IMG/VR virus record: IMGVR_UViG_3300001765_000038
Coordinates: 1-64,000 of that record
Source: a virus
Lineage: Duplodnaviria; Caudoviricetes
DNA: 64,000 nt
Strand: one strand, 5' to 3'
Shown: positions 3,995-62,981 of the stretch, piece after piece
Layout: the number at the start of each line of letters is the position of its first letter
Numbering within the stretch: position 1 is the first letter of the stretch
Notes under the pieces: generated by a model
What the model was told of the DNA's origin: nothing
Seen by the model: the letters and a program-made list of their open reading frames with translations, nothing else
The model's database searches: none
Translations under genes and position numbers: made by a program

Positions 3995-4026
3995 TTTATT
4001 CTTTCATAACAATGTTTAAAATTCAA

Positions 4027-4581: not shown

Positions 4582-4593
4582 ACTTATCTCCTA

Positions 4594-43034: not shown

Positions 43035-43042
43035 TATTTATA
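43035..43042 (-). promoter_or_regulatory. Perfect late promoter TATAAATA upstream of gp25, embedded in an inverted repeat
   Basis: Plus-strand tatttata at 43035-43042 within attgatata-tt-tatatcaat (43028-43047). Confidence 0.75.
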
Positions 43043-43346: not shown

Positions 43347-46300
43347 TTATTCCCTTGTATGTTGTTTGACTTTATCGATAAGTTTTCCATTGAAAACTCC
43401 CCAATTATCTCTTACTGTAATCTTTAATGGGATTGTTGTAGTAAATGGTTCAACCGTTGTGGTAGTACCGCCGACGCCACCTGTATCTGATAATTCAATG
43501 ATGCCTTTAAATGTAGGATTTTGTGCTGATATATCAACCCATTTATATTGAGGGCCGATTTGCACTGGGCTAGAATAAATTATTGTATTTCCTTGACCTA
43601 ATTCTCCATTAACATTATAGCCCCAACCCCATAATGCTCCTGTATCATTAAGCATATAATAATTACCTGCTAATGCAGACACTTTAGACCAATTACTTAA
43701 TGTACCAATTTGAATTGGCGACATCATAAAATGATCAATTCCATGATTAATAAAATCATTATTTAAATAATTACCATATGTTTGTAAATCCCCCCAACCC
43801 CATAATGTACCATCTGTTTTTACTGCCATCGTCAAATCATTAAAATAACCACATGTTATCTGTTTCCAATTTGTTAATGTACCAATTTGTGTTGGGCTAG
43901 ATATACCAAACACAGTTATATGATCTGATACATATCCCAATCCTAATTTTCCATAATAATTAGAACCACAACCCCATAATGTGCCATCAGTTTTAATTGC
44001 TAACAAATCATCTCTAAAATTAGAACCTAATTTGCTCCAAGTAGTTAAAGATCCAATTTGAGTAGGCGATGAAACTGAATTAGTATGACCAAGACCTAAA
44101 CAACCAGGTGTATTATACCCCCAACCCCATAATGAGCCATTAGTTTTGATTGCAGCTACATTATTATTTGTTCCTGAAATACTCGCCCAATCACTCATTG
44201 AACCAACTTGAGTAGGACTTGATCTTAAAATTTCATCTCCTAAACCCAAAGCACCACCGCTGTTTTCACCCCAACCCCATAATGTGCCATCTGTTTTGAT
44301 TGCATTAGTGCACTGTTGTTTCCATGATCCAATTATTTGAGTCGGACTTGAACGATGAATTATATCACCAGTTCCTAATTCACCATTTCCATTCCAACCT
44401 GTCGCCCACAATGAATTATCCGCTCTGATACCCAATGTTGAATATGAATCACTAACAGAAGACCAATCATTTTTATCACCTATTTGTATTATAACATGAT
44501 GATCTATGGTATCACCTGTACCTAACTGACCGAACATATTAGATCCACATCCTACTAATACTCTACCAGTACCAGTTATAGGGGTGTCTGGTGGTGTTAT
44601 TGGTGTACTATCAGTGATACCCAACCAATAAGTATGACTTCCACTAACATCTTTCCAAGTACTCAATGTACCTACTTGCATCGGTGCAGAAATTTCCCAT
44701 ACAGTATCATCTGGTGTTATCATTTGATCTGTATTATAACCACATGCCCATAATGTACCATTAGTTTTAATCATCATCATGCAATAATGACCAGATGATG
44801 CTAATTTATCCCAATCACTTAATGATCCAACTTGTGTAGGAGAAGATTTATCAATACTATCTCCATGGCCTAAAATGTTTCCACCATTGTATCCCCAAGA
44901 CCATAATGTACCATCTGTTTTGATAGCAAAACTAGCAGAACCGTCAGCATGTACTTGTTTCCAATTACTTAATAAACCAACTTGAGTTGGAACATCTAAA
45001 TTTACAGAACTAGTATTTTGTCCTAAAACACCATCTACATCTCTACCCCAAGACCATAATGTACCATTAGTTTTAACTGCTAAAGTGTGATATTCGTTAA
45101 CAGATGCCTGTTTCCAGTTTAAATCAGTGCCAATTTGAACAGGTGATGAAACACCAAGATCAGTAATAGCACCTAATCCCAACATAGTGTTTTCCCAATC
45201 CCAACCCATCACCCATAATGATCCATTATTATTTAATAATATTGTTCGATTAGATTCAGCTGTCCATGCTTTTGACCAAGTATTCCCACCAGCAATTTGT
45301 ACTGGTGAACTTATAGGAATATTTGGATTCATTCCTAATTCACCAGAATAATTATAACCCATACCCCATGCTGTGCCATCAGTTTTTATCATAACTGTAG
45401 TCATTGCACTACAATGCACATATGCCCAATCATTTGATGTTCCAACTTTAATAGGAGTTGATACATTATAAACATATCCATTATAAGGTGTTTGTCCCCA
45501 CACCCATAACGACCCATCAGTTTTAATACCGTTAGAATTATATGCATATCTTTCAGATGGTGCAGCTAATTGTTTCCAATCGACATTAGAAATTAATTGA
45601 ACGGGTGATGAGTATTGATTATTAATTTCACCGATACCTAATTCGCCTGACCAGTTTGTTCCGTTGCCCCAACCAGCAATATTAGATGGTGGTGTATCAT
45701 CTGTTGTCGCTAACCATGCATAACCTGCACCCCAAACTTTACTCCAATTACTCAATGTTCCAATTTGAATTGGTGACGAGTGATTTATTTGATTAAGTAT
45801 AGCCCCATTCGATGTATATGCGTAATTAGTTTCACCCCATGCCCATAATGTGCCATTAATTTTTCTTGCTATAAATGATCTCCATGGGACGCCTCCCCCA
45901 CCAATTTCACCCCAATCGCTCAATGTTCCAATTTGAACAGGTGAAGATAATTCAAAATTTGGATCAATTGTACGCTCTGCAGCACAAACAGTCTTGAGTA
46001 ATGAATAACTAGTTCCACCCCATCCCCATAAGGTATTATTATTCTGTATCCCATAAACTGTGGAATCATCACAAGTTACATTTTTCCAATTACTTAGTGT
46101 CCCCAGTTGAACTGGCGAAGATGTTGATTGAGTAGTAAAACTATTTAATAAAAGATTTCCATAAAAATTAACACCCCAACCCCATAATGTATTGTTAGTT
46201 TTAATTGCTGTAGAATATTCAGTGCCTATAGCAATAAACCTCCAATCAGTATCTACACCAATTTGCACTGGAGAAGACATGCTAGTATATCCATTTACCC

Positions 46301-49300
46301 CTTGTCCTGTTTGTCCTCTATTATTGTTTCCCCATCCCCATAATGTGTTATTTTCTCCAATGGCAATTGTATGATAACCACAAACCACTTTATTCCAAGT
46401 TGTTTTTGTTCCAATTTGCACCGGACTTGATCGTGAGAAATAATCACCTATACCACCTTCTCCAAAACCATTATAACCTATCATCCATAAAGTATTATCT
46501 GATTTAATTCCCATCATTGTTGAACCATGACAATTAACACTTTCCCAATTTCCGGTGTTGCTTATCATTACTGGTGCACTAACAGACTTATTATATGCTC
46601 CATATATGTTTCCAACTCCCCATAAATTTTTATTTTTATCAATAAAAAATGATGCTGGGACATCACCAGAAGTACACATATATGTCCAATTACTACTTAA
46701 TTGAACGGGTGATGAATAATTAGTATAATCTGCCTTATCGAGTGCTGGGAAGTAACCAGCACCCCAATGTTTAATATAAGTAGGTGCCGGCGCCGGCGCC
46801 GGCGCCGGCAATATTTCTCTTGTTGCTAATGTAACATTATCATATGATGATATTTCATTCCAATCACTTAATGTGCCAATTTGAATTGGCGATGAATAAT
46901 CGAGTGTATTAGAAGCTCCTAATGAGCCCCATACTACACCTTCACCACAAGCCCACAATGTTCTATCAGTTTTAGTGGCAAATAAAGCTGAATCACCTAT
47001 TTCAACCGATCTCCAGTTATTCAAACTGCCAATTTGAGTGGGAGATGATCTGTGGATCTTATCTCCCAGTCCTAAACCACCATCACCATTCCAACCCCAA
47101 GACCATAATGTACCATCTGTTTTAACAGCTCCAGTAGAATAATAAATTGATACTTGTTCCCAGTTACTTAAAGTACCAACTTGTGTTGGTACTGAATACC
47201 CGAGTATGTTTTCTAATCCCAATTGCCCATGTGAATTCCAACCCCATGCCCATAATGTACCATTAGTTTTTACTGCCATTGTGCTAGCATATTCTCCAGC
47301 TGATATTTGTTTCCAATTAAATCCTGTACCAATTTGAACTGGACTTGAACGATTAATATCATCACCCAATCCAAGCTCTCCAGATTCATTTTCACCCCAA
47401 CCCCATATTCCACCACCTATACTTTTTGCAATTGTATGATAATATCCACAAGAAACTTTATCCCAATAATCTAATATTCCGATTTGAATTGGTGAAGAAC
47501 GATTATCAGCATAACCAGATATACCGTTACCCAAAGTACCTATCCAATTATATCCACATGACCATAATGTACCATCGGTTTTAACGGAAACAAAAAATCT
47601 TCTTCCCGCAGAAATTTGCTTCCAATTACTTAAAGTACCGACCTGACATGGAGAAGAACGATTATTATAAACATCTCCTAAACCTAAACCACCTTCACTA
47701 TTAGCACCCCAGGACCATAATGTCCCATTTGTTTTGATACCATATGATGATTGATAATATTCTTCAATAGTATTCCAATCATTTAATAGTCCAACTTGAA
47801 CTGGACTAGAACGATCTAAATCATCATTTGTTCCTATTTGACCCCATGTATTTGCACCCCATGCCCATAATGTATTGCTTGTAAGTGGAGGTGCATTTAC
47901 AGTAGTTTTAAATCCGAAAAAATAATCTGCATCAATAATTGCTTTTTCCCATGTATTTTCTATACCAATTTGTACTGGAGAAGATACATAATTTACAATT
48001 TCCCAGTCACCCAAATCAAATCCGGGATTTAATCCCCATCCCCACAAGGTTCCATCTGTTTTAGTTGCAATAACATTATCCCATGAAACAAATACTGTTT
48101 TCCAGTTATTTAATGCTCCAATTTGACGAGGAATAAATGTATCTAATGTTTCAGGTGATGTTATATCAGGTAAATATCCGTTATGATCATTACCCCATCC
48201 CCACAGTGTTCCATCAGTTTTAATTGCAATATTATAATCATAATGAGAATCAACAAATGACCAATTGCTCAATGTTCCAACTTGAGTTGGACTAGAACGA
48301 TCAATATAATCACCCAATCCTAGTTGTCCATTTATATTCCACCCCCATGTCCATAATGTTCCATTTGTTTTGATTGCTTTAACACTCTCAACACTTGCGG
48401 CAACTTGTTTCCAATCATTTGACGTACCAACTTGTATTGGAGAACTATAACGATAAGCACCAATTGTAGTACCGGTAAGTATTCCATAATCATCTTGTCC
48501 CCAACCCCATAATGTGCCATCTGTTTTAATTGCGAAATGTGCCCACACCCAACCATATGGTTTACCAGAAACAGAACTCCAATCACTTAATGATCCAACT
48601 TGAATAGGTGATGAATATCTAATCGTATTACCAACTCCCAATAATCCATCCCAATTATAACCACATCCCCATAATGTTCCATTAGTTTTAATTGCTAGCC
48701 AACTCCATTCAGCAGCTGATGATACTGTTTTCCAATTATTTAATAAACCTATTTGACATGGAGATGATCTTTCAATATTATCACCAAATCCAATTATAGA
48801 ATCTCTGTTCCCGCCCCATCCCCATAATGTACCATCAGCTTTAGTTGCAACTACACTATTATCCCAACCAGATGAATTTAATATTGCTATCGAACTCCAA
48901 TTATCACCAACATGTTCAAATTTGAAATAACCATCTGCATTACCAACACCTGCAGGTCCAGTACTGTCACTTAAAGGTATTTGATCATATCCACAGAACC
49001 ATAATTCATTTGATGGTGTTACTTGTACTGGACTAGATATTACTGGTGTTATTGGTGTTAATGTATCATCAGTAATGCCAATCCAATGATAAGAATTACA
49101 TGATACTTGCGTCCAATTAGAAAGAGATCCAAGTTGAACAGGTGAAGATTTATTTTCATTTATTAATTGATCACACCCCGCAATATCACCCCATGCCCAT
49201 AATGTACCATTAGTTTTAATAGCAAAGGTTCTTTCACTGCCCCAACCACCAGTATGATTATTTGATAATTTACTCCAATCGCCTAGCAATCCAATTTGAG

Positions 49301-52300
49301 TTGGTACATCCACATATGTTCCAGTACCACCACCCTGACCAGAATTACCTATACCCCACGTCCATAATGTGCCATCTGTTTTAATTGCTGTTGATTGAGA
49401 ATATCCACAAGAAATAATATTCCAATTTGTGGCAGTTCCAATTTGAGTGGGAGAGGATCTACTAAACTGATCTGCTTGACCTAACGCACCATTTGCATAA
49501 CTACCCCAACCCCATAATGTTCCATCAGTTTTAATCGCTATACTAAATCTTCCACCACATGATACTGTTTTCCAATTATTCATTGTTCCTACTTGTGTAG
49601 GACTAGAACGATCATCCCAATTATCACCCAATCCTAATTGGCCATCAGATGTACTTCCCCATGACCATAATGTGTTATCAATTTTAATTGCTAATGAGTG
49701 TGTATCACCTGGTGCAATATCTTTCCAATTGGTTGAAGTGCCTACTTGAGTTGGACTAGAACGATTTTCATACAATGTTCCATGACCAAGCATTCCCCAA
49801 TCATCATTACCCCAAGTCCACATTGTACCGTCAGTTTTGACTGCCATAACATGATCACGGTTCATTGCAATTGTTTTCCAATTGCTTGTATCACCTACTT
49901 GAGTTGGACTAGAAATTCCCATAAATTGACCTGAAGAAGTATAACCTAAACCCAATTGACCTACATCATTATATCCACAACCCCATAATGTGCCATCAGT
50001 TTTAATAGCAAATGATTGCTCCCATTCACCTGTTGCAATATATTTGTAATCATCTCCTAACATTAATATTGGACTAGTATACTGTATTCTATCACCATGT
50101 CCTAATTCACCACCATCATTATAACCACAACCCCATACTTTTAAAGGTGATGGTGGTTTTATGTAAACTTCACCTTGAGATGCAAGTGTTGCATACATTG
50201 ATGATTCTACTTTATTCCAATTACTCAATGTTCCAACTTGGCAAGGAGATGATCTATCAATATTATCACCTAATCCACAATTATTATGATATTGTGTATT
50301 TTGACCCCATGTCCATAATGTTCCATCTGTTTTTGTTGCTGCGGCAGCATAACCACAAGCAATATCTTTCCAATTTGTCATTGATCCAATTTGAACAGGT
50401 GAAGATCTATCAATATTATCACCCATTCCTAATCTTCCATGGAAATTTTCTCCCCATGACCATATTGTGCCATCAGTTTTAAGAGCTAAAGAATATCTAC
50501 AAAATGTTTTTTTAGATACTTTATTCCAATTTGACATTAATCCTATTTGTATAGGAGAAGATATATTTGTTACTAAATCACCACTAATTCCATTGCCAAA
50601 TTCGCCTCTAGTATTATCACCCCAAGACCATAATGTGCTGTCAGTTTTAATTGCATGAGCAACAAATTCACTTGCATTTATTTGTTTCCAATTTGTTAAT
50701 GATCCAATCTGCACAGGAGATGAAATTGCCTCCCAAAAATAAGTACCACCTGATGGTGCTGGCAATAATCCGTCACTAGTATATCCCCAACCCCACAGTG
50801 TGCCATTAGTTTTAATAGCGAAAGTTGTGTTCATACCGCATGTTACTTCTTTCCAATCACTTAATGATCCTACTTGAATCGGTGAAGATGCCCATATTGT
50901 TTCTGGATATCCACATTTACCGCCACTATTATTTCCCCACACCCACAATGTTCCATCAATTTTAATTGCACCTACATGATTTTCTACAGATACTTGTTGC
51001 CAATCAGTTAATGCACCTATTTGTATTGGAGAAGATTTTTTTTCATCATCTTCATAAAAATGTCCTGTTGATCCCCATGACCACAATGTACCATCTATTT
51101 TAATGGCAAACGCATTATATTCGCCCAGAGAAAAATTATTCCAATTTTCTAATACACCAATTTGACAAGGAGATGATCTATCAATCATATCACCTAAACC
51201 TAAACCACCATATTTTATACCCCATGAATATAATTTGCTACCACGAGAAAAACTAGAACATAATTTTTCTTCATATCCTATAAACTCTGTAGTATTTCTT
51301 ATTCCCATTGAATTATTATATGAGCATGAGATACTACTCCAATCGCTCAATGATCCAACTTGAGTAGGACTACTTCTACCATCAGATATTGTAGTTCCTA
51401 TACCTAAATGATGTTGAACCCAATTTATACCCCACGCCCATAATGTACCATTATTCTTAATTGCGAAAGTGTTTTGTGCACCAACTTTAACATCTTTCCA
51501 ATCAGTCATTGATCCTACTTGAACTGGGCTTGATCTAGCAATTGTATCATTAACTCCAACTGCACCATCAATGTTAGATCCCCACGCCCATAATGTACCG
51601 TCTGTTTTAATTGCTGCAGTGGCCATGTCAGATATTGCAACAGTTTTCCAATTGCTTAACAATCCAACTTGAGTTGGGCTAGATCTATTTATTGTATCAC
51701 CCAATCCTAAACCAGCGCCCCATCCCACACCCCAAACCCATAATGTACCATCAGTTTTAATTGCTGCAGAATTAGCCCACATAGTAGAAATATGAGCCCA
51801 ATCACTCAATGTTCCAAGTTGAACAGGACTTAAAGTATCGACACCTTCAACTCTTCCCCATCGCCATAAAGTATTATTTGTTTTTATAGAATATGATATA
51901 AATCTACCGGCTATAATTTTATTCCAATCACTTAACAATCCAACTTGAACTGGACTAGATCGATAAATATCATCACCTAACCCTAATTGACCCTCATCAT
52001 TTGATCCAGTTGCCCATAGTGTTCCATTTGTTTTTGTCATTAATGCATGATAACCGCAAGATACATCTTTCCAATCAGTCATCGAACCAACTTGAACGGG
52101 TGATGATGAATAACCTATATAATTTCCAAAACCACCCCATACCCAATCATTTGATCCCCATGACCATAATGTGCCATTTGGTTTTATTCCCGCACTTGTA
52201 TAATTTCCTGGTGCTAAAACTGACCAATTGTTTAATGATCCAATTTGCATAGGAGAAGATATTCCCCAAATTGGTCGATCTCCAATACCTAAAGAACCGT

Positions 52301-55300
52301 CTAAACATTGCCCCCAACCCCATCCAGTTGTAGAAGTTACTATAACTGGTGATGAACATATATTTGGATCTGGGCATGGTACATTTAACCAATTATTTGT
52401 TCTATTTTTAATAGCAAATGATCTATAATAAGTAGAATATGCATCTGACCAATTACTTAATGTGCCTACTTGTGTTGGACTTGAATAATTTATGTTATTT
52501 GTGTTTAGACCTAAACTGCCACCTTGAGCATTACCCCACGCCCAAAGTGTACCATCTGTTTTAATTGCTGCACTATAGTAACCACATGTTATTTTTGCCC
52601 AATTTGACATTGAACCAATTTGACATGGAGAAGATTGATGAGCAAAATTACCAGCATATCCTAATCCTAAATCTCCATTCCAATTTCCACCCCATGACCA
52701 TAATGTGCCATTTGTTTTAAGTGCGAGTGTATGCCAACACCCAGGTTTTATATCTGCCCAATCTGACATTAGTCCGACTTGCGTAGGACTAGATCTCCAA
52801 ATTTCATTACCTAATCCCAATGCACCCATCCATCCAGATCCCCACATCCATAATGTGCCGTCTGTTTTAATTGCACCTACGGGTGGTGCATTAAGTGAAT
52901 ACCAAGTAGATAATTTTGCCCAATTTGACATTGATCCAATTTGACATGGACTCGAGCGATCAATTTGGTCACCAAGTCCAAGAGGCCCTTGCCAACCCCA
53001 ACCCCACGACCATATAGTGCCGTCTGTTTTAAGTGCGTGAAATATATTATCATCACATGCATTTATACTTTTCCAATTACTTAATGATCCAAGTTGAACT
53101 GGACTAGATTCAGCATAATTTGTACCGAGTGTGCCAAACGCACATTGAGAATTATACGCACCCCAATACCATAACGTTCCGTCAGTTTTGATACCCAATG
53201 TCGCCGTTTCAGCACATCTTACTTCTTTCCAATCGCTTAATGTTCCTACTTGTTGAAAATCATAATTGTATGCAAAAAGTGAATGCCCGAGGCCGAGCAT
53301 ACCATCCCAGTTTAATCCGTTAGCCCATAATGTTCCATCATCTTTAATAACAAAGAAAGAATCCCAATTGCCTGATATTTTATCCCAGTTTGATTCTATA
53401 CCTATTTGTACTGGTGATGAAATGTCTGTACTTACAATTTCATCTTTATAACCAGAATACCACAATTCACCACCCATTTGTACGGGAGATGAACATGTTA
53501 CTGGTAATGTATCTTCTCCAGTTAATCGTATTCCTCTGAACGAACCCCATCCACAAGTTATGTCAGTCCACGTAGATAATGTGCCAACTTGACAAGGACT
53601 AGAACGATCAAATACATCATTCAATCCAAGTTGACCACCATTATTTTCTCCCCAGGTCCATAAAGTACCGTTTGTTTTAATAGCATATGATGATTCAACA
53701 CAATAATTTTCTATTTCTTTCCAATCACTTAATGTGCCAACTTGACATGGACTAGAACGATTAATATTATCATTTAATCCTAAAAGACCTTTAGAATTAT
53801 CACTACCCCATGTCCATAAAGTACCGTTTGTTTTAATTGTAAGTGCATGTGCGGTTCCGCATGCTAATTTATTCCAATCAGTTAATGCACCTATTTGTGC
53901 TGGACTAGATCGCCATATATTATCATTATGTCCCAATTGACCCTGTTCATTATATCCCCAACTCCAAATACTATTGTCTAATTTTAAACCAACTACTGCA
54001 TTACTTAAAAATTTAGCTGTTTTCCAATTTGCTTCTGGATCAGTACAAGTTTTTGTTCCAGTAAGTCCTACAGCTTTAAAAAATTCTTGTCCGACTTTTA
54101 ACCAATTACTTAATGATCCGATCTGTATTGGAGAAGATATTACACTATCTGAAAAATTATTTCCTCCCAATAAATAAGTATAATTACCAGTTTGTGAATA
54201 AAACGGATATCTATTTGATCCCCAACCCCATAATGTTCCATCAGTTTTAATTCCATAATATATTGGTAAATTAACATCTTCTTTATTCGACCAAACTGTT
54301 TTCCAATTTGATAAATTGCTTATCATAATTGGTGTAAGTATTGGTGTAGTAGATCCATTTAATAATTCTTTTTCATAGGGTGATCCCATACCCCATAACG
54401 TCCCATTAGTTTTTACTGCTATTGTGCAATGAAAACTCATTGCAACATGTGACCAATCACTCATTGATCCAATTTGCACTGGTGAAGAAATATCATTTTG
54501 ATGACCAATACCCAAATTACCAAAATAATTGCTGCCCCAACCCCATAATGTGCCATCAGTTTTAATTGCTACTGCTGATTGGTCAGATGTAAAAATATTT
54601 TTCCAATCATCTAAAATACCAACTTGAAATGGTATTTCATGTTCTTGATTTGAAGAATTTAATCCTAATTGCCCATGAGTACCAAGCCCCATTCCCCACA
54701 ACTTACCGTTACTTGTAATGCCCATTACTGTTTCATTACCACCAACTGAAACATCTTTCCAATTACTCATGGTTCCTACTTGACAAGGACTAGAACGAGA
54801 TATTCCACCAGTATTAATACCTAGCCCCAACGATCCGTAATAATCATTACCCCATGTCCATAATGTACCATCTGATTTAATAGCAGCATTAGTTGAATAA
54901 CCACAAGATATTGTTTTCCAATCAGTCAATGTTCCAATTTGTATTGGACTCGAATGATCAATTGTATCACTTTGACCCAATTGACCATCGTGATTACGAC
55001 CGTTTGACCACATTGTGCCATCATTTTTAATTGCAACCCAATGATAATCACCACATCCAATATCTTTCCAAACTGTTGTTGTATCAGTTATGGAAATTGG
55101 AGTTGGATTATTAAATAATCCATTTACTAGTTCACCATAATAACTTGCACCCCAACCCCATAAATTACCGATTGCGACTGGTGATACTGATGGTGTTCCA
55201 TGGATGCCCATAGTATGAACTAACCAATTATGTGCTACTTTAGTCCAATCACTATATGTGCCTACTTGAACAGGTAAAAAATAATATGTTGCTGAATAAG

Positions 55301-58300
55301 GAAGACCTGCTTGACCAGAATCATTTCTACCCCAGCCCCATAAAGTACCATTTGTTTTAATACCATTAACAATTGTTTCACCACCGAGCGAACATGATAC
55401 TTCTTTCCAGTCTGAAGCAGAACCCATTTGTACTGGTGATGAAATAGTTGGTTGCCCCCATGTGTAAGAATTTCCCCACCACCATAATGTTCCATTTTGT
55501 TTAACTGCATATGCATTTGCCTCTGCTAATGCACATTGACTCCAATCACTCATTGATCCTATTTGAATAGGACTCTGAACATTAGCTGTAAGTGTATCAC
55601 CCCAACCCCACAATGCACCAGTAGTTTTAACTGCAAGAGCACCACTGCCACTTGCACATACTTGTTTCCAATCTGTTGATGTTCCAAGTTGTGTATGTTG
55701 TAATAACGGTGATTGAAATATATCATATAATTCATGATCACCTGATACCCAAAGAGTATTGTTTTCTCTTATTCCATATGAAGCACCATAACTACATGAT
55801 ATTTGACGCCAATCACTGAAATTACCCACTTGAGCTGGAGATGATATTAAATCATATTCAATACCTAAACCAAAAATAGATGAGTTGGGATTACCTTCAT
55901 TTTCACCTAATGCCCATAATGTTCCATCTTTTTTAATTAACATTGTGCTAAATGATTCATTGACAACTACTTTGTTCCAATCAGTTAATGAACCAATTTG
56001 AACTGGACTTGAACGGTATACTTGATCCCAAAGATTAATATTGACTTGACCATGATTACCTCTCCAATCTCTACCACAGAACCATAATGATCCATCATCT
56101 TTAATACCTGTCCAAAACCAATATCCACAACTAATATCTTTCCAATTTACACTTGGTGGTGCGACCTGAATAAATCCATATTGTTCATAATTAGGTGCTG
56201 TGCCATCACCAACAGTACCATGAGATATCCAACCTGTAATCATTAAATTACCATTTGTCGCTGTTGTTACATTTTGAGTTGCATCATTTGAAATAGTGCA
56301 TACTAAATTATCTTGTGGTGCGCCCTGTGTATATGATATTGTTCCTAATTGAACTGGTGAAGATCTGTTAATATTATCACCTAATCCTAAATTACCATCG
56401 CCGCCATATCCAATAACTAACGTTCTATTATCATTAGTTAAAACTGTTATTTGTCCAAAATCAGCTGAGGTTGTTATTGATTTCCAATCATATCCTATAT
56501 TGGTTAATGTAGTTAAAACTCCAGTATTTACAGTTGTATATCCTAATAGATTACCGTAATCATCATCGCCGGCTGCCCATACTTGGTTATATGTATTAAA
56601 TGCATATATATTAGTAGCCCCAGCAACAACATTTGACCAATTAGATAATGATCCTATTTGTACTGGACTAGAATATACAATGTCTATTCCAGTACCAAGA
56701 TATCTTCCTCTTCCAATACCCCATAATGTACCATTTGTTTTAATTAATACAGTATTATCAGTACTGTTACTACTAGAAATTTTATTCCAATCACTTAATG
56801 ACCCTATTTGAGTAGGAACAGAACGATTAATATTATCACCAAACCCTAAATAACAGCCCCAATTATATCCCCATGCCCATAATGTACCATTTGTTTTAAT
56901 TGCATGATTTCTAGCATATGCTGGAGCTAATACTTTCCAATCAGTATCTACACCAACTTGAACAGGACTAGATCTACCAATACCAGAAACACCTAAACCG
57001 AGACTTCCACTATAATCAGTTCCCCAAGCCCATAATGTACCGTCTGTTTTAATTGCAGAACCACAACTCCAACCAGCATATATTTCTTTCCAATCATTAG
57101 AGGTTCCTATTTGAGTTGGAGATGTATATGTGTCCCAAGTTCCTAAACCTAATGTACCACCAAAATCACCCCACGCCCATAATGTACCATTTGTTTTTAG
57201 AGCGAAAGTTTCTCTAGTTTGGTTACCAACAATTTTTGCCCAATCATTTGATAAACCAACTTGAACTGGAGAAGAAATAAATCTATCTGCCCATGGCGGT
57301 ACTGTTGGGTAAAATGATGGGTCACCTGCAATATAACCATCTGTACAACCAGTAAACCATAAAGTACCATCTGATCTGATTAAATGTAAACCTAATCTAG
57401 ACATTCCATATTCTTTGTAATACAATGAAGAAAATGTATTATTTGATGATAATTGAACTGGTGATGAATATTGAATAGTTTGATCAGCTGAGTTACCTAA
57501 TTGACCGCCAAAATTCCAACCCCAGATCCATAAAGTATTATCATTTTTAATTGCTAGAGTATTAGTATTATCATTATTTGTGATAAATTTCCAATCAGAT
57601 AAAGATCCTATTTGACAAGGACTTGATCTACTTATCATATCTCCCAAACCTAAATGACCACCTTCTGGTATACTGTTACCCGGCCAACCCCACGACCATA
57701 TTGTACCATCTGTTTTTAGTGCAACTGCTTCTGCACCACTACCCCCATATATTTCTTTCCAATCATTAAGATTACCAACTTGAACTGGACTCGAATTTAA
57801 ATAATAATCCCACGGAAACAGTGCATTGTATGCACAAGACCAAAGTGAATTATTATTTTTAGTAAGAAATGTTGGATATCCATTAAATACCTTTGACCAA
57901 TCATTTGGATTACCTAATTGAGTAGGTACTGAACGAGAATTAATATCACCAAGACCTAAATTACCATCACTATTATAACCACAAACATATACAGTACGAT
58001 TACTGCCACCACTTCCTAATGTTGTTTTTGTGCCAGTGATAGTTACTTGTGCATAATAGGGATATTGGTGATTCGGGCCTGTATATTGAAATATCTCTGA
58101 TTCGATGGGTATATTATCAAAACTTTTTGATGTACCATATGTTATATCTGGATTGATAAATTGCATACCACGAGGAAATTTATCTTTCAATTCACCAAAA
58201 TTGCCTTTGATATGAATTGTTGTGCCATCAACAGACGATTGAACACCTGCTTCTGAGGGCACAACAATCGACACATGTTCAATTGATTGTGTTACCGCTG

Positions 58301-58400
58301 GATCAGTATTAGTATCAACAACATACACAACATTGTCGAATTGTGTAAGTTCAACCGCGTTTACCTTATCAGGATTTAAATTAAAATTTACATCAGTCAT
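43347..58400 (-). CDS. Giant RCC1-like beta-propeller array protein (91 blades) in a gp5.1-like frame
   Basis: Repeat consensus LWxWGxNxxGxLGxGDxxxRSSPxQIGxLSxWxxVxxGxxxxxAIKTDGT counted 91 times; about 130 N-terminal and 40 C-terminal residues are non-repetitive; lies between gp5 and gp5.4. Confidence 0.9.
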   Translation of the reverse strand: MTDVNFNLNPDKVNAVELTQFDNVVYVVDTNTDPAVTQSIEHVSIVVPSEAGVQSSVDGTTIHIKGNFGELKDKFPRGMQFINPDITYGTSKSFDNIPIESEIFQYTGPNHQYPYYAQVTITGTKTTLGSGGSNRTVYVCGYNSDGNLGLGDINSRSVPTQLGNPNDWSKVFNGYPTFLTKNNNSLWSCAYNALFPWDYYLNSSPVQVGNLNDWKEIYGGSGAEAVALKTDGTIWSWGWPGNSIPEGGHLGLGDMISRSSPCQIGSLSDWKFITNNDNTNTLAIKNDNTLWIWGWNFGGQLGNSADQTIQYSSPVQLSSNNTFSSLYYKEYGMSRLGLHLIRSDGTLWFTGCTDGYIAGDPSFYPTVPPWADRFISSPVQVGLSNDWAKIVGNQTRETFALKTNGTLWAWGDFGGTLGLGTWDTYTSPTQIGTSNDWKEIYAGWSCGSAIKTDGTLWAWGTDYSGSLGLGVSGIGRSSPVQVGVDTDWKVLAPAYARNHAIKTNGTLWAWGYNWGCYLGFGDNINRSVPTQIGSLSDWNKISSSNSTDNTVLIKTNGTLWGIGRGRYLGTGIDIVYSSPVQIGSLSNWSNVVAGATNIYAFNTYNQVWAAGDDDYGNLLGYTTVNTGVLTTLTNIGYDWKSITTSADFGQITVLTNDNRTLVIGYGGDGNLGLGDNINRSSPVQLGTISYTQGAPQDNLVCTISNDATQNVTTATNGNLMITGWISHGTVGDGTAPNYEQYGFIQVAPPSVNWKDISCGYWFWTGIKDDGSLWFCGRDWRGNHGQVNINLWDQVYRSSPVQIGSLTDWNKVVVNESFSTMLIKKDGTLWALGENEGNPNSSIFGLGIEYDLISSPAQVGNFSDWRQISCSYGASYGIRENNTLWVSGDHELYDIFQSPLLQHTQLGTSTDWKQVCASGSGALAVKTTGALWGWGDTLTANVQSPIQIGSMSDWSQCALAEANAYAVKQNGTLWWWGNSYTWGQPTISSPVQMGSASDWKEVSCSLGGETIVNGIKTNGTLWGWGRNDSGQAGLPYSATYYFLPVQVGTYSDWTKVAHNWLVHTMGIHGTPSVSPVAIGNLWGWGASYYGELVNGLFNNPTPISITDTTTVWKDIGCGDYHWVAIKNDGTMWSNGRNHDGQLGQSDTIDHSSPIQIGTLTDWKTISCGYSTNAAIKSDGTLWTWGNDYYGSLGLGINTGGISRSSPCQVGTMSNWKDVSVGGNETVMGITSNGKLWGMGLGTHGQLGLNSSNQEHEIPFQVGILDDWKNIFTSDQSAVAIKTDGTLWGWGSNYFGNLGIGHQNDISSPVQIGSMSDWSHVAMSFHCTIAVKTNGTLWGMGSPYEKELLNGSTTPILTPIMISNLSNWKTVWSNKEDVNLPIYYGIKTDGTLWGWGSNRYPFYSQTGNYTYLLGGNNFSDSVISSPIQIGSLSNWLKVGQEFFKAVGLTGTKTCTDPEANWKTAKFLSNAVVGLKLDNSIWSWGYNEQGQLGHNDNIWRSSPAQIGALTDWNKLACGTAHALTIKTNGTLWTWGSDNSKGLLGLNDNINRSSPCQVGTLSDWKEIENYCVESSYAIKTNGTLWTWGENNGGQLGLNDVFDRSSPCQVGTLSTWTDITCGWGSFRGIRLTGEDTLPVTCSSPVQMGGELWYSGYKDEIVSTDISSPVQIGIESNWDKISGNWDSFFVIKDDGTLWANGLNWDGMLGLGHSLFAYNYDFQQVGTLSDWKEVRCAETATLGIKTDGTLWYWGAYNSQCAFGTLGTNYAESSPVQLGSLSNWKSINACDDNIFHALKTDGTIWSWGWGWQGPLGLGDQIDRSSPCQIGSMSNWAKLSTWYSLNAPPVGAIKTDGTLWMWGSGWMGALGLGNEIWRSSPTQVGLMSDWADIKPGCWHTLALKTNGTLWSWGGNWNGDLGLGYAGNFAHQSSPCQIGSMSNWAKITCGYYSAAIKTDGTLWAWGNAQGGSLGLNTNNINYSSPTQVGTLSNWSDAYSTYYRSFAIKNRTNNWLNVPCPDPNICSSPVIVTSTTGWGWGQCLDGSLGIGDRPIWGISSPMQIGSLNNWSVLAPGNYTSAGIKPNGTLWSWGSNDWVWGGFGNYIGYSSSPVQVGSMTDWKDVSCGYHALMTKTNGTLWATGSNDEGQLGLGDDIYRSSPVQVGLLSDWNKIIAGRFISYSIKTNNTLWRWGRVEGVDTLSPVQLGTLSDWAHISTMWANSAAIKTDGTLWVWGVGWGAGLGLGDTINRSSPTQVGLLSNWKTVAISDMATAAIKTDGTLWAWGSNIDGAVGVNDTIARSSPVQVGSMTDWKDVKVGAQNTFAIKNNGTLWAWGINWVQHHLGIGTTISDGRSSPTQVGSLSDWSSISCSYNNSMGIRNTTEFIGYEEKLCSSFSRGSKLYSWGIKYGGLGLGDMIDRSSPCQIGVLENWNNFSLGEYNAFAIKIDGTLWSWGSTGHFYEDDEKKSSPIQIGALTDWQQVSVENHVGAIKIDGTLWVWGNNSGGKCGYPETIWASSPIQVGSLSDWKEVTCGMNTTFAIKTNGTLWGWGYTSDGLLPAPSGGTYFWEAISSPVQIGSLTNWKQINASEFVAHAIKTDSTLWSWGDNTRGEFGNGISGDLVTNISSPIQIGLMSNWNKVSKKTFCRYSLALKTDGTIWSWGENFHGRLGMGDNIDRSSPVQIGSMTNWKDIACGYAAAATKTDGTLWTWGQNTQYHNNCGLGDNIDRSSPCQVGTLSNWNKVESSMYATLASQGEVYIKPPSPLKVWGCGYNDGGELGHGDRIQYTSPILMLGDDYKYIATGEWEQSFAIKTDGTLWGCGYNDVGQLGLGYTSSGQFMGISSPTQVGDTSNWKTIAMNRDHVMAVKTDGTMWTWGNDDWGMLGHGTLYENRSSPTQVGTSTNWKDIAPGDTHSLAIKIDNTLWSWGSTSDGQLGLGDNWDDRSSPTQVGTMNNWKTVSCGGRFSIAIKTDGTLWGWGSYANGALGQADQFSRSSPTQIGTATNWNIISCGYSQSTAIKTDGTLWTWGIGNSGQGGGTGTYVDVPTQIGLLGDWSKLSNNHTGGWGSERTFAIKTNGTLWAWGDIAGCDQLINENKSSPVQLGSLSNWTQVSCNSYHWIGITDDTLTPITPVISSPVQVTPSNELWFCGYDQIPLSDSTGPAGVGNADGYFKFEHVGDNWSSIAILNSSGWDNSVVATKADGTLWGWGGNRDSIIGFGDNIERSSPCQIGLLNNWKTVSSAAEWSWLAIKTNGTLWGCGYNWDGLLGVGNTIRYSSPIQVGSLSDWSSVSGKPYGWVWAHFAIKTDGTLWGWGQDDYGILTGTTIGAYRYSSPIQVGTSNDWKQVAASVESVKAIKTNGTLWTWGWNINGQLGLGDYIDRSSPTQVGTLSNWSFVDSHYDYNIAIKTDGTLWGWGNDHNGYLPDITSPETLDTFIPRQIGALNNWKTVFVSWDNVIATKTDGTLWGWGLNPGFDLGDWEIVNYVSSPVQIGIENTWEKAIIDADYFFGFKTTVNAPPLTSNTLWAWGANTWGQIGTNDDLDRSSPVQVGLLNDWNTIEEYYQSSYGIKTNGTLWSWGANSEGGLGLGDVYNNRSSPCQVGTLSNWKQISAGRRFFVSVKTDGTLWSCGYNWIGTLGNGISGYADNRSSPIQIGILDYWDKVSCGYYHTIAKSIGGGIWGWGENESGELGLGDDINRSSPVQIGTGFNWKQISAGEYASTMAVKTNGTLWAWGWNSHGQLGLENILGYSVPTQVGTLSNWEQVSIYYSTGAVKTDGTLWSWGWNGDGGLGLGDKIHRSSPTQIGSLNNWRSVEIGDSALFATKTDRTLWACGEGVVWGSLGASNTLDYSSPIQIGTLSDWNEISSYDNVTLATREILPAPAPAPAPTYIKHWGAGYFPALDKADYTNYSSPVQLSSNWTYMCTSGDVPASFFIDKNKNLWGVGNIYGAYNKSVSAPVMISNTGNWESVNCHGSTMMGIKSDNTLWMIGYNGFGEGGIGDYFSRSSPVQIGTKTTWNKVVCGYHTIAIGENNTLWGWGNNNRGQTGQGVNGYTSMSSPVQIGVDTDWRFIAIGTEYSTAIKTNNTLWGWGVNFYGNLLLNSFTTQSTSSPVQLGTLSNWKNVTCDDSTVYGIQNNNTLWGWGGTSYSLLKTVCAAERTIDPNFELSSPVQIGTLSDWGEIGGGGVPWRSFIARKINGTLWAWGETNYAYTSNGAILNQINHSSPIQIGTLSNWSKVWGAGYAWLATTDDTPPSNIAGWGNGTNWSGELGIGEINNQYSSPVQLISNVDWKQLAAPSERYAYNSNGIKTDGSLWVWGQTPYNGYVYNVSTPIKVGTSNDWAYVHCSAMTTVMIKTDGTAWGMGYNYSGELGMNPNIPISSPVQIAGGNTWSKAWTAESNRTILLNNNGSLWVMGWDWENTMLGLGAITDLGVSSPVQIGTDLNWKQASVNEYHTLAVKTNGTLWSWGRDVDGVLGQNTSSVNLDVPTQVGLLSNWKQVHADGSASFAIKTDGTLWSWGYNGGNILGHGDSIDKSSPTQVGSLSDWDKLASSGHYCMMMIKTNGTLWACGYNTDQMITPDDTVWEISAPMQVGTLSTWKDVSGSHTYWLGITDSTPITPPDTPITGTGRVLVGCGSNMFGQLGTGDTIDHHVIIQIGDKNDWSSVSDSYSTLGIRADNSLWATGWNGNGELGTGDIIHRSSPTQIIGSWKQQCTNAIKTDGTLWGWGENSGGALGLGDEILRSSPTQVGSMSDWASISGTNNNVAAIKTNGSLWGWGYNTPGCLGLGHTNSVSSPTQIGSLTTWSKLGSNFRDDLLAIKTDGTLWGCGSNYYGKLGLGYVSDHITVFGISSPTQIGTLTNWKQITCGYFNDLTMAVKTDGTLWGWGDLQTYGNYLNNDFINHGIDHFMMSPIQIGTLSNWSKVSALAGNYYMLNDTGALWGWGYNVNGELGQGNTIIYSSPVQIGPQYKWVDISAQNPTFKGIIELSDTGGVGGTTTTVEPFTTTIPLKITVRDNWGVFNGKLIDKVKQHTRE
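46785..46810. repeat. Perfect 26-bp palindrome T(GCCGGC)4A encoding a PAPAPAPA linker
   Basis: tgccggcgccggcgccggcgccggca read directly; self-complementary. Confidence 0.95.
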
Positions 58401-58403
58401 TTA

Positions 58404-61121
58404 TTATGCAAAGCCAAGACCTTGTGTAGTTGTACCCGTTGAAGTATTTATCGTCATCATAGATCCTCTATTTCCACCATCTGCATTCATTGATACATGC
58501 ACCCATGCAGAACCAGAACTACCAGATGATTCAAGAATAAGTTGATCAAATGGCACACTATTTTTTATTTCACTTGCAAATTCTTGCATTAATTGTTTCT
58601 TATTGGCCGATTCTTCTATTGAACGTCTTGACAGATCAACTGCCATACCCTTGTTATGTTGTGATGTTCCCGTTCCCATTCTAAAGCCGCTATTGATAAT
58701 GAGATCAGGATATTTCTGTTTAAGTGGTTCAAGAACATTAATCGCTAACTGCATTAAATTACATACAATCTTATCTTGTGATAAACCTACTTGTCCATCA
58801 ATTCCCGGTAAGGGTGCTGAACCGCCACCCGGTCTTTTACATAATTGACCTAATGTGAAATTAGTAGATAATCTTGTGCTTGAACCAAATGGTTTTTGAT
58901 CTTCTAACGCTGCACAATCACCTTGATATGGTTTAATTGGTGGCGGCGGCAAATTATCTACTGGAATATCTGATGACGGTTCTGCTAATCTTGGAGTGTT
59001 ATTACTCAATCTTTGATCCTCTACATATTTTGCCTGTTCTTCTGGACTTGCATCTTCCATTAAAAAGTCATCTGATGATTGGCGAGTGGTAGGATCTAAT
59101 ACCTTAAGTTCTGGTTCAAATTCTTCAATATCAACTGCATCTTTCGCATCACCCGCATCGCCCGCATCTGCAGCAAGAGTTGACATACCAGAGTTCCAAT
59201 GGATCAATTGTGCATCACCAGCAATCATCACACCTGCAGTTAAACTCATTGTATCACCTGCACTACCAGCAATGTTTATACCTGCTTTATAATCATAATT
59301 ACCATCAATAGTTAAACGACTATCCATCAATACATGTTCATCTTTAGCACCATCAATTTTCAACATGTAATCGCCAACTGTATGTTCATCATAATTACCA
59401 TCTAACAACAATTTATAATCGCCACCTATGTGCCAGTCATAATTACCATCAACTCGCATTTTCATATCACCCTTAACCCAACAATCCCAATCACCATCTA
59501 TTTTTTGTCTGACATCACCTTGCACATATAGTTGAACGTCTCCCACAACTTCTACTTGTAATGACTTTTGAATAATGACACTAAAATCGCCATCAACTGT
59601 TATAAGACCAGTACCTGTAATATGAGTTTTATTGTCGTTTTCATTTATTTTAACTTCATTACCCTTGATACGACTTGTGATATTACCTTTAGAATCTATT
59701 TCAACAAAAGTACCCGTTTTATGATAGATGTGAATGCGCTCCATACCTTCAGTATCATCAATTTCTATAGTGTGCCCAGACTCAGATTCCAATACATGGT
59801 TAAATGGATAATCAGCATTGTAAGGAATTAATGTTTGATCCCATGTAGATTCAGAATTTGCTATTAATAGTTCTTTTTCACGTTCTTGCTCTTTAGGAAC
59901 AACAATTGTTTTTTCAATCGATTGATGCCGCGCTAATCGATGAGTATCAGGTTCTTCCAACCAATCTTCTTTTGGATATTTTTCATTAGGATCTTTAAAT
60001 CCTATTATATCTTTGGTGCCACGAATTCTTAATTTTTTACTTAGTTCGGGCATGTTTGCTGGATCAAACTTTGAACTCTCTGAACTAGAATTACTGTTGT
60101 TTTGGATATTTTTATCAATAGGAGCACTAGCTAAGTTTTGTGGTGTTGGTAATTCATTAGTTGCTTGCCCAGCAATTGCTTTTTGTCCCAGGTTATAATA
60201 TGATTGAGCACTTGTACCATTACCATCAACGGGATTACTACCATTTAAAAACTGTTTTGCACCACCAGCACCGACTAAATGTGCTGCTGTAAGCATGCCT
60301 GCTTGTTTTTCAGCAGGCACTGAATCATTTAAATTCAAACGTTTATAGTTAGTTTTCAAATTGCTATCCATTGCATTTTCTTGTGCAGATGGATTATTTA
60401 AAAATGAGTCCTTACTTGTAGTGCCATCTTTACCAGTCCAAAGACTTGGATTATTCATCGCCTGATTGCCATATTTGGCAGTCGATCCTGGACTTAAATA
60501 GCCTGCATCTTCCAATGCACCCGCACCCATTTGATATTTGCCCAAATAGTTGCGGCTATTTACTGCTTGATAATTATTACTTGATTCTCTATTGCCAATT
60601 GTTTGTTTTAACTTATCATATTGATCTTGTGATAAATTACCTAATGTATTATCGCCTGATGCAGTTGATGGTGAGACAACATAACCACCTGAACCAGTTT
60701 GAATAGGTGTGCCTGAACTGTCAGTCACTGCATTTTCTGGTACAGATGTGTTTCCCTTTGCTTGATTCTGAATAGTGTTCTGTAGAAAATCTTCAATATC
60801 TTCTGCTCGTGCATTATCTTCAATAGGAATTCCACCAATACTTCCCATCATAAATGGTTGCTGATATGAATCATCTAAAAACGTTACAACCAACCATGTA
60901 CCTTCGACTGGCCCAACAGGCGCTTGTCCGATACCAGACATTGCAGCACTATTGATTGCTTGAAGTGGCCACGCCCATGGTAAATCTTCTATAGGCAATT
61001 CGATTTTATTATCAGTATGTAACCCAAGCACCCTAACACGGCATCGCCCCAAAAACAGAGGATCCATTCGATCCTCTACAACACCAAACCAAAGAATTTT
61101 ATTGCCTATTTTATTATGCAT
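58404..61121 (-). CDS. gp5: Baseplate central spike (gp5) with lysozyme-like domain, beta-helix and C-terminal peptidase M15-like domain
   Basis: WFGVVEDRMDPLFLGRCRVRVLGLHT OB-fold; RESSNNY...YLGKYQMG; YPFNHVLESESGH.IEIDDT.G.ERIH..H.TGTF.E; GxYDxxxD octads; INSGFR...SQH.KG.AVD...WVHVS; start set to MHNK at 61121 with GGAG RBS. Confidence 0.93.
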   Translation of the reverse strand: MHNKIGNKILWFGVVEDRMDPLFLGRCRVRVLGLHTDNKIELPIEDLPWAWPLQAINSAAMSGIGQAPVGPVEGTWLVVTFLDDSYQQPFMMGSIGGIPIEDNARAEDIEDFLQNTIQNQAKGNTSVPENAVTDSSGTPIQTGSGGYVVSPSTASGDNTLGNLSQDQYDKLKQTIGNRESSNNYQAVNSRNYLGKYQMGAGALEDAGYLSPGSTAKYGNQAMNNPSLWTGKDGTTSKDSFLNNPSAQENAMDSNLKTNYKRLNLNDSVPAEKQAGMLTAAHLVGAGGAKQFLNGSNPVDGNGTSAQSYYNLGQKAIAGQATNELPTPQNLASAPIDKNIQNNSNSSSESSKFDPANMPELSKKLRIRGTKDIIGFKDPNEKYPKEDWLEEPDTHRLARHQSIEKTIVVPKEQEREKELLIANSESTWDQTLIPYNADYPFNHVLESESGHTIEIDDTEGMERIHIYHKTGTFVEIDSKGNITSRIKGNEVKINENDNKTHITGTGLITVDGDFSVIIQKSLQVEVVGDVQLYVQGDVRQKIDGDWDCWVKGDMKMRVDGNYDWHIGGDYKLLLDGNYDEHTVGDYMLKIDGAKDEHVLMDSRLTIDGNYDYKAGINIAGSAGDTMSLTAGVMIAGDAQLIHWNSGMSTLAADAGDAGDAKDAVDIEEFEPELKVLDPTTRQSSDDFLMEDASPEEQAKYVEDQRLSNNTPRLAEPSSDIPVDNLPPPPIKPYQGDCAALEDQKPFGSSTRLSTNFTLGQLCKRPGGGSAPLPGIDGQVGLSQDKIVCNLMQLAINVLEPLKQKYPDLIINSGFRMGTGTSQHNKGMAVDLSRRSIEESANKKQLMQEFASEIKNSVPFDQLILESSGSSGSAWVHVSMNADGGNRGSMMTINTSTGTTTQGLGFA

Positions 61122-62394: not shown

Positions 62395-62981
62395 GTTGTA
62401 GATTCTTTCAACGCTTTTAAATATGCCTTAATAAATTCACCAATATAATTACTTTTTATAAGTTTAATCTGTCTTTTTCTTTCATTCAGACCATCTTCGT
62501 ACTCATAATTAGTTACTGGTATACCTTCTAAAGTTTTATAATCACTCATCCATATGGGGTGAGTAGCATCAAGACCCTTTAATTGTGCATTGGTAGCATT
62601 TTTATAATCATAATAATATTCATCAACTACATTACCATCTGGATCTTCATAATGATGTATATCATAGATCTTATCTTCACCGTATTTACTTATAACAAAT
62701 TTCATCATAGAATCATATATCATTGGAAAGTCAGTGATGTAATCAAACCTGTTATTAATATACATAACAACCCAGTGATAATCCATCGTGTTATAAAATT
62801 TATATGATATGATTTCTGGTGTTTCTCCATCTAACATTGTGTAATTGAAAAACATATAACGGTTTTCAATATCAGTCATTCTATAATTTATTCGTACTAA
62901 AATATCTGGAATAATAACCGGAATAGCATTCTCATTACGAATTGCTAAATCATACATAATTTTTGGTAAATTTTTAATCAT
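62391..62981 (-). CDS. gp53: Baseplate wedge protein (gp53, LysM-like)
   Basis: Y...DGETPEIISYKFY..MDYHWVVMYIN, IHHYED, V.NYEYE..LNERKRQIKLI. Confidence 0.93.
   Translation of the reverse strand: MIKNLPKIMYDLAIRNENAIPVIIPDILVRINYRMTDIENRYMFFNYTMLDGETPEIISYKFYNTMDYHWVVMYINNRFDYITDFPMIYDSMMKFVISKYGEDKIYDIHHYEDPDGNVVDEYYYDYKNATNAQLKGLDATHPIWMSDYKTLEGIPVTNYEYEDGLNERKRQIKLIKSNYIGEFIKAYLKALKESTT

Follow-up and report, generated by a model that had tools for sequence, protein, structure and literature searches.

Why a marine T4-like phage should carry a protein of 5017 residues between its central spike protein gp5 and its PAAR spike-tip protein, in the place where T4 has the small protein gp5.1, is the question raised by one gene of the virus record IMGVR_UViG_3300001765_000038. 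The DNA analyzed here, called the window, comprises the first 64 kb (64,000 nucleotides) of this 75.8-kb IMG/VR record, which is rated 46% complete. The results support the view that the gene is the gp5.1 ortholog of the phage, with about 4,825 residues inserted in the tip loop of its long C-terminal hairpin; the insert has 91 RCC1-like blades, which probably make up 13 seven-bladed propellers. This architecture and the homology with gp5.1 are highly probable. The whole explanation, in which the gp5.1 ortholog and its propeller array form a spike-associated binding scaffold, is probable. Both gp5.1 proteins and RCC1 arrays of phages are already known; their combination is new and is found in no characterized phage.

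An intact giant gene in the gp5.1 slot

As a preliminary description of this DNA had claimed, the gene is a single intact open reading frame (ORF) of 5017 codons on the minus strand (nt 43347–58400), with an ATG start and no internal stop. The encoded protein, called the giant below, has a mass of 544 kDa and an isoelectric point of 4.9, and consists of an N-terminal gp5.1 half, 91 RCC1 blades and a C-terminal gp5.1 half. The frame is unbroken over 15,051 nt. Since the DNA has 33–37% G+C and is thus AT-rich, an open frame of 15 kb is not a chance product. The gap between the gp5 stop codon and the ATG of the giant is 3 nt, and that between the stop codon of the giant and the ATG of the PAAR gene is 2 nt. 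Synteny and these gaps confirm that the giant fills the gp5.1 slot between gp5 and PAAR, as had been proposed.

A protein database lists a 4198-residue product, P0056, which starts at the internal Met820 (window nt 55943) and comes from two contigs, the longest of 76,651 bp. The frame in the window is open upstream of Met820 to residue 1.

Both ends of the giant are homologous to gp5.1

The gp5.1 family (phrog_1168; PF26906) consists of late ORFans of 145–190 residues between genes 5 and 5.4 of the Straboviridae, the same slot as that of the giant, and T4 gp5.1 is one of three late-expressed ORFans of that phage (bioRxiv 10.1101/2025.08.28.672839). Members occur in more than 1,200 T4-like phage genomes of the collection searched. 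For comparison with the giant, a hidden Markov model (HMM) was built from 11 Straboviridae gp5.1 sequences, namely T4 (NC_000866) and ten diverse others. In all ten others the gene lies directly after gene 5 or before the PAAR gene, mostly between both; the order gp5, gp5.1, PAAR was seen in T4, JSE, Acj133, Vibrio D486, BUCT-ZZ01 and others. The family alignment displays a conserved N-terminal body, a loop of 0–35 Gly/Ser/Pro-rich residues, and a conserved tail, Y-x-Q-x-V-x-G-N-W-x-x-W-x-x-x-L-R-x-Y-V. The motifs SWEELP, LYLWKAP, FTYEVTL and TIVGNW, which the preliminary description gave for T4 gp5.1, are all present in the real T4 sequence (NC_000866).

When the array is left out and the two ends of the giant are joined, the HMM yields one collinear alignment over the junction, covering profile positions 34–161 with 18.3 bits (E 9e-8 at Z=1). 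Taken alone, the N-end scores 13.7 bits and the C-end 3.9 bits, each at the right profile positions, while the maximum from 2000 shuffles is 7.1 bits. Of 143 ORF segments in the window, the N-end is also the one that the HMM matches best. With the BUCT-ZZ01 member added to the HMM, the joined ends reach 26.1 bits (N-end 16.4, C-end 9.0), against maxima of 10.7 bits for 5000 shuffles and 7.2 bits for about 237 natural ORF decoys. A profile of the giant's lineage, compared by HHalign with Straboviridae gp5.1, gives a probability of 96.2% (E 2.4e-9, 136 columns), which rises to 97.5% (E 4.9e-12) when BUCT-ZZ01 is included. The resemblance of the joined ends to gp5.1, proposed in the preliminary description, is thus substantiated. 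The C-end comprises a gp5.1-like last strand, IPLKITVRDNW, followed by the C-terminal helix GVFNGKLIDKV, and matches the C-end of a metagenomic homolog described below at BLASTP E 7e-4.

At 5017 residues the giant is about 30 times larger than the gp5.1 family members and far outside their range of roughly 145–190 residues. All of the excess consists of RCC1 blades in one loop, which holds 91 blades instead of 0–35 residues.

The point of insertion

An AlphaFold2 model of the gp5.1 family, computed from a 34-sequence alignment, has a predicted local distance difference test (pLDDT) value of 85.8. It displays a beta-sandwich, a long hairpin (strands 105–118 and 139–152) and then a C-terminal helix (155–168). 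The hairpin tip loop, residues 119–138, is the sole part of low confidence. The strand YYAQVTIT of the giant, its two Gly linkers, IPLKITVRDNW and GVFNGKLIDKV map onto this hairpin and helix; therefore the array is placed by the model at the hairpin tip, which would be a structurally tolerant place for domain insertion. A MAFFT alignment with the ends as separate rows likewise locates the break within the Gly/Ser loop that varies among gp5.1 proteins. The collinear HMM alignment, the MAFFT break and the modeled hairpin tip agree with the earlier proposal of an insertion in one loop, and the Gly linkers LGSGGSN and DTGGVGG that flank the array are present in the translation together with the unique ends.

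Foldseek comparison of the gp5.1 model with BFVD finds the same fold across T4-like phages, including a 169-residue protein of Prochlorococcus phage P-HM1, and comparison with the PDB returns generic Ig-like matches only. Several phage proteins of 424–1251 residues in BFVD match part of the gp5.1 model with a Foldseek probability of 1.0 and a template modeling score of about 0.37; they include a 'serine proteinase' of Agrobacterium phage Atu_ph07 and a MedDCM 'tail fiber protein'. On the basis of the models, these longer proteins could be other decorated gp5.1-like scaffolds, or simply generic Ig-like domains.

Relatives with no insert and with a shorter insert

The closest cultured relatives of the phage are Kyanoviridae (pelagiphage Mosig, Methylophilales phage Melnitz and cyanomyoviruses), and gp6 is just 37% identical. 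The top PAAR match among cultured phages belongs to Synechococcus phage BUCT-ZZ01 (Kyanoviridae). Its 151-residue gene directly upstream of PAAR is a member of the gp5.1 family, with 39.8 bits to the HMM and a tblastn match to gene 5.1 of Acinetobacter phage Acj61 (E 2e-6). The cyanomyovirus (S-PM2, Syn1) and Mosig/Melnitz loci are uninformative, as gp5 is located elsewhere or no gene lies between gp5 and the next small gene.

Metagenome contigs were scanned with the PAAR protein of the window, giving 24 loci, and those with a T4-like gene order have one of three forms between gp5 and PAAR. Locus L024 (PAAR 71% identical) has a plain gp5.1-like protein of 156 residues, which scores 23.2 and 6.4 bits with the HMM and matches the BUCT-ZZ01 protein at E 8e-8, and L025 (PAAR 67%) has a plain, divergent protein of 199 residues in the slot. 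These two and the BUCT-ZZ01 form share slot, lineage and, probably, fold family with the giant, as well as the C-terminal motif ITV-x-N-D/N-W...L-I-x-K-V, but they are uninterrupted and have no insert.

The third informative locus, L023 (contig JFJP01037012.1), has a PAAR protein 82% identical to that of the window, and over gp5 and PAAR-gp6 about 67% of its nucleotides are identical. In its slot, a gp5.1-like N-half is followed by the linker SGTGGTSTS, then by at least 12 RCC1 blades (a lower bound, unreliable owing to a frame break and a duplicate) and by a C-end ending IPFNFNIQSDWNKANSELITAVK. The joined ends of this protein match those of the giant across the junction at BLASTP E 2.5e-5, and match the BUCT-ZZ01 protein at E 1.4e-5. 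Its blades are without one-to-one orthologs in the array of the window. The contig thus carries the architecture of the giant in an independent phage, with a much shorter array. It is the only other instance of gp5-[RCC1 array]-PAAR synteny found in the metagenomes, and the contig is uncharacterized; as the preliminary description suggested, no characterized phage has the architecture. The slot shows a natural insertion and expansion series of 0, at least 12, and 91 blades, an unusually clear one for a single locus, with probable nesting of propellers in a propeller as described below.

Other searches for relatives of the ends were negative. A tblastn search with the N-end against 50,697 phage records found nothing, a phmmer search of 1.84 billion representatives with the N-end returned two spurious matches (a low-complexity repeat and an unrelated tandem Ig-like repeat), and the ESM Atlas gave no usable match. 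The search of viral contigs for related loci with the N-end, gp5 or the BUCT-ZZ01 protein yielded nothing. No longer fused form of 330–2000 residues was recovered with the gp5.1 alignment, a negative that is weak evidence.

The RCC1 array

Pfam identifies PF25390 (RCC1-like domain) in 13 + 13 stretches of the two halves of the giant, as well as PF00415 and PF13540; the highest E-value is 1e-83, for PF13540 in the N-terminal half, and the lowest is 0. The scores in the two halves, 848 and 1052 bits for PF25390 (cut-off 150) and 494 and 632 bits for PF00415, are above the gathering thresholds. One block compared with solved structures matches UVR8 (E 5e-41), with further matches to HERC1/2, RPGR and RCC1. 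The blocks are bona fide RCC1-like domains. The eukaryotic proteins are single intracellular propellers, whereas the giant has a tandem and probably nested array encoded in a phage tail operon.

An HMM of the blade, trained on the giant itself, gives 93 matches; subtraction of two fragments of 7–8 residues leaves 91 blades, the number that had been counted by hand. The preliminary description arranged them as 13 × 7. This holds directly for ten linker-bounded blocks of 343–368 residues, each with exactly seven blades. The other 28 blades occur as 7 (residues 139–506), 4 (507–721), 7 (722–1067), 7 (1080–1439) and a half blade plus 3 (1452–1628), and they make four sets of seven only if two propellers sit within a third. 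Residues 507–690 joined to 1452–1628 form 361 residues with seven blades, 33–41% identical to the other propellers. The simplest reading suggested by these sequences is that propellers 3 and 4 are nested inside propeller 2.

The linkers PSVSPVAIG, PPSPLK, PITPVISSPVQ, PAPAPAPAP and PITPPDTPITG are all found between blocks, as reported. A perfect (GCCGGC)n palindrome at nt 46785–46810, flagged as terminator-like on the plus strand, simply encodes the linker PAPAPAPAP, which separates propellers 10 and 11.

The propellers are 31–46% identical to each other (mean 39%). DNA repeats in the array are short, at most 133 nt, and 60–85% identical, making misassembly of the contig unlikely. These low identities of propellers and DNA repeats indicate that the array is probably old or fast-diverging and did not arise by faulty assembly.

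The consensus of the blades is LWGWGSNSGGQLGLGDNISRSSPVQIGTLSNWKKVSAGESSVLAIKTDGT; its positions 2 and 32 have a fixed Trp, and Trp is also common at position 4. Framework residues are kept (W2 100%, G5 99%, P23 96%, W32 98%, T50 100%), and variation is concentrated at positions 6–11, 17–19 and 37–43. The giant contains 301 Trp (6%), mainly at blade positions 2, 4 and 32. The preliminary description had called the propellers Trp-rich and a candidate lectin array. As these are framework positions of the blade, high Trp was rejected as a lectin sign. Apart from one weak match (phrog_11922, E 7e-4), no tail fiber PHROG or Pfam match was found on the giant, nor a recognizable fiber anchor, trimerization or tip domain.

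RCC1 proteins of other phages and of bacteria

The same repeat family occurs in RCC1-like proteins of Rak2-like jumbo phages, phiCD211-like Clostridioides phages and Synechococcus phage S-SRM01. Unlike the giant, these proteins have one to few propellers each, are encoded by separate genes outside the gp5-PAAR slot, and lack gp5.1 ends. Among the Rak2-like phages, phAPEC6 has eleven RCC1-like paralogs; all these proteins are of unknown function (PMC7247149). The RCC1-like gp1 of GAP32, also a Rak2-like phage, was detected in virions by mass spectrometry (PMC5259590).

RCC1 giants are frequent in metagenomes, with 562 proteins of 2759–8780 residues, for example P0057 (4328 residues) and P0058 (4655 residues). 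They resemble the giant of the window in size and repeat family, but start directly with blades or bear LamG, dockerin, T9SS or other anchors. In the best 119 of the 562, the gp5.1 HMM found no gp5.1-like ends. The bacterial ones bear extracellular-type domains (LamG, dockerin, T9SS sorting tails), and at least two metagenomic RCC1 giants lie in phage tail fiber neighborhoods. At L022:1285-21252, three consecutive RCC1 genes (4655, 1562 and >989 residues) follow a tail-fiber-like protein of 427 residues. At L020:3965-18987, a 677-residue protein with a collagen-like tail fiber N-terminus, an RCC1 domain and a fiber C-terminus directly precedes an RCC1 giant of 4328 residues.

RB43 orf205w, of about 690 residues, occupies the T4 5.1-5.4 locus (bioRxiv 10.1101/2025.08.28.672839). 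It marks the slot after gp5 as a site where T4-like phages vary their spike-tip equipment. Compared by description only, it differs from the giant: a mixed alpha/beta N-terminal part is followed by an all-alpha-helical part, it replaces PAAR, and it has no RCC1 repeats.

The phage of the window has a second virion-module protein with propellers, a DUF4815 protein. Its two propellers are 40–44% identical to those of the giant, which brings the total in the tail module to 15. A DUF4815 paralog of 2153 residues (nt 26611–33072, minus strand) has no propellers and displays a weak CBM_5_12 match.

Proposed role and alternatives

The two gp5.1 halves would reassemble into one clasp. As the array starts from one small beta-sandwich and returns to it, its 13 propellers would then form a closed loop, a necklace on a single clasp. 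The clasp would retain the normal contact of gp5.1 near the spike tip; the sole published proposal for this contact is an AlphaFold3 model that places gp5.1 on the side face of the PAAR pyramid (PMC13611949). The protein would be synthesized late, with its translation coupled to that of gp5 and PAAR, and be carried on the virion near the spike, an association to which we give an even chance. There the propellers, diverse in sequence, would bind molecules of the host envelope as a multivalent array of low affinity, and this array would have to come off or give way at firing of the spike. This binding or adhesin role is a tentative prediction, with a chance slightly short of even. Virion association and binding gain indirect support from the AlphaFold3 model of gp5.1 and PAAR, the presence of GAP32 gp1 in virions, the RCC1 giants near tail fiber genes, and the bacterial giants with extracellular-type domains. 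The array may grow by whole propeller cassettes inserted into loops, a mechanism that would also have given the two propellers within another and the two in the DUF4815 tail protein.

Several points weigh against this explanation. T4 gp5.1 gives no BLASTP alignment with the N-end or C-end at E ≤ 100; phrog_1168, the PHROG matched by T4 gp5.1, is unreported for either end at E ≤ 0.01; Pfam on the ends is empty even at E 10, in a copy that lacks PF26906 and in which T4 gp5.1 itself is unmatched; and HHalign with the ends as single sequences reaches just 43% probability. Since curated libraries and BLASTP give nothing, the gp5.1 homology rests on custom profiles and intermediates. The N-end alone, modeled by AlphaFold2 from a single sequence, has a pLDDT of 40.6; its few predicted strands lie at the aligned positions, but the model is too poor for a fold search. 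In L023 the array is split by a frame break (near 4120–4140) into ORFs of 211 and 599 residues (L023:3507-6001) and holds an exact 29-residue duplicate, GTLWTCGYNYFGGLGLGDNINRSSPTQVG; assembly collapse, recombination between blades or decay are possible causes. The gp5 of the window runs about 300 residues past its beta-helix, which makes it hard to picture the geometry of the spike tip and how PAAR caps it. A load of 544 kDa on a membrane-piercing tip is mechanically awkward and must be displaced at firing. Finally, no reconstruction of the T4 baseplate has shown gp5.1, whose presence in the virion is unproven (PMC13611949).

The invisibility of gp5.1 in T4 baseplate maps (PMC13611949) would also suit a protein of the same architecture with another job. 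Such a protein might be a cargo or effector that travels on or with the PAAR tip and enters the host envelope or cytoplasm at infection, or an intracellular late platform for protein interactions. PAAR-linked cargo of type VI secretion is an analog of the former, and the eukaryotic RCC1, HERC and RPGR domains are protein-protein interaction platforms. The closest solved relatives of the blocks, UVR8, HERC1/2, RPGR and RCC1, are all protein-binding platforms, and adjacency to PAAR is compatible with a cargo relationship, the PAAR protein being a separate 97-residue gene product not fused to the giant. However, 544 kDa of folded propellers are far too big for the tail tube or for spike-driven passage through a membrane. 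The gene lies within the baseplate operon, RCC1 arrays of other phage contigs occur among tail fiber genes, and a second tail-module protein of this phage bears the same propellers. Another job for the giant would be unlikely.

The likeness to gp5.1 might also be the coincidence of a generic Ig-like beta-sandwich, in which case the giant would be a free-standing RCC1 fiber or whisker with an unrelated anchor that happens to lie between gp5 and PAAR. The silence of curated libraries and BLAST on the ends, the generic Ig-like folds matched by the gp5.1 model in the PDB, and the lack of gp5.1 ends in the best 119 other RCC1 giants would all suit such a fiber. Against it, each end aligns in collinear order with the half of the profile that corresponds to it, at scores well beyond those of shuffles and decoys, and a chain of significant pairwise matches leads from the window through L023 and BUCT-ZZ01 to Acj61 and T4. 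HHalign with the lineage profile gives 96–97.5% probability, the synteny is exact in more than 10 phages, and the break falls at the variable loop of the gp5.1 family itself. Coincidence is largely refuted by these results and very improbable.

A runaway repeat expansion (non-functional, selfish or decaying) or a chimeric assembly can hardly account for the gene: the database call P0056 with its internal start at Met820 and the frame-broken, duplicated array of L023 would agree with it, but the frame is unbroken over 15,051 nt of AT-rich DNA, the blades retain their framework residues (from W2 to T50), and propellers at 31–46% identity with DNA repeats of at most 85% over at most 133 nt fit neither recent slippage nor repeat-driven misassembly.

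With gp5.1 homology preferred over these alternatives, the giant offers the first real clue to the purpose of gp5.1, a long-unexplained T4 protein. In this natural variant, the variable hairpin loop is occupied by folded domains of a binding type that amount to half a megadalton. Such an insert in the loop argues that gp5.1 is a surface-exposed scaffold rather than, for example, a buried assembly factor. The locus is also a further hint that RCC1-like propellers form a widespread, uncharacterized class of phage host-interaction module. A broader proposal is doubtful: gp5.1 would be the general spike-tip display adaptor of T4-like phages, one copy on the side face of PAAR with the hairpin loop as a built-in insertion site. 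In the marine lineage it would bear a closed necklace with as many as 13 different propellers, which would make the first multivalent host contact and be shed at firing, so that a modular, expandable receptor-binding organ would sit at the tail tip and not on fibers.

Other genes and sites in the window

All large genes of the window are on the minus strand, and the region around the giant is a T4-type baseplate module (Table 1). The 2070-residue ORF has a weak, sub-threshold baseplate-wedge match and is gp7-like by position.

Table 1. Features of the giant gene, its neighbors and the second propeller protein in the window
Feature	Position (nt)	Strand	Residues	Remarks
gp48 tail-tube cap	62981-63991	-
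gp53	62391-62981	-
426-residue tail protein	61114-62394	-
gp5 central spike, 912 residues	58404..61142	-		OB domain, beta-helix, ~300-residue C-terminal extension
Giant gene, 5017 residues	43347..58400	-
N-end, gp5.1-like beta-sandwich half, last strand YYAQVTIT	58026..58400	-	1-125	gp5.1 HMM 13.7-16.4 bits alone, profile ~28-118
Entry linker TLGSGGSNRTVY	57987..58025	-	126-138	aligns with variable Gly/Ser-rich loop of gp5.1
Propeller 1, 7 blades	56883..57986	-	139-506	blade HMM
Propeller 2, first part, 4 blades	56238..56882	-	507-721	blade HMM
Propellers 3 and 4, 7 blades each	54084..56237	-	722-1067, 1080-1439	between the two parts of propeller 2
Propeller 2, second part, half blade + 3	53517..54047	-	1452-1628	with first part, 7 blades
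Propellers 5-13, nine clean 7-blade blocks	43515..53465	-	5-9: 1646-1999, 2027-2369, 2392-2741, 2756-3112, 3133-3500; 10-13: 3511-3860, 3879-4235, 4244-4595, 4617-4962	Pro/Thr/Cys-rich linkers
Exit linker DTGGVGGTTTT and C-end	43350..43514	-	4963-5017	gp5.1 HMM 3.9-9.0 bits, profile ~131-161
PAAR spike-tip protein, gp5.4-like, 97 residues	43051..43344	-
TATAAATA, T4-type late-promoter motif	43035..43042	-		upstream of gp25
gp25, gp6, 2070-residue ORF, gp8				after PAAR, in this order
DUF4815 protein, 2355 residues	17725..24792	-	139-481, 725-1089	second virion-module protein; two 7-blade propellers

Residues 438–598 of gp5 align to residues 381–541 of T4 gp5 (beta-helix), and about 300 residues follow (residues ~620–912, window nt 58404–59300, minus strand). 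This extension matches the endolysin PHROG phrog_894 (E 5e-15) and, weakly, Peptidase_M15/VanY.

A consensus scan of the window for promoters and terminators found no excess over shuffles. No TATAAATA occurs between the site upstream of gp25 and the window end, and for this reason gp48, gp53, the tail protein, gp5, the giant and PAAR look like a single late transcription unit. The whole window has five copies of TATAAATA (nt 2692, 5201, 15299, 17519 and 43035), all on the coding minus strand, against 14.8 expected from shuffles. This depleted, one-sided pattern fits late-promoter use together with avoidance of the motif elsewhere.

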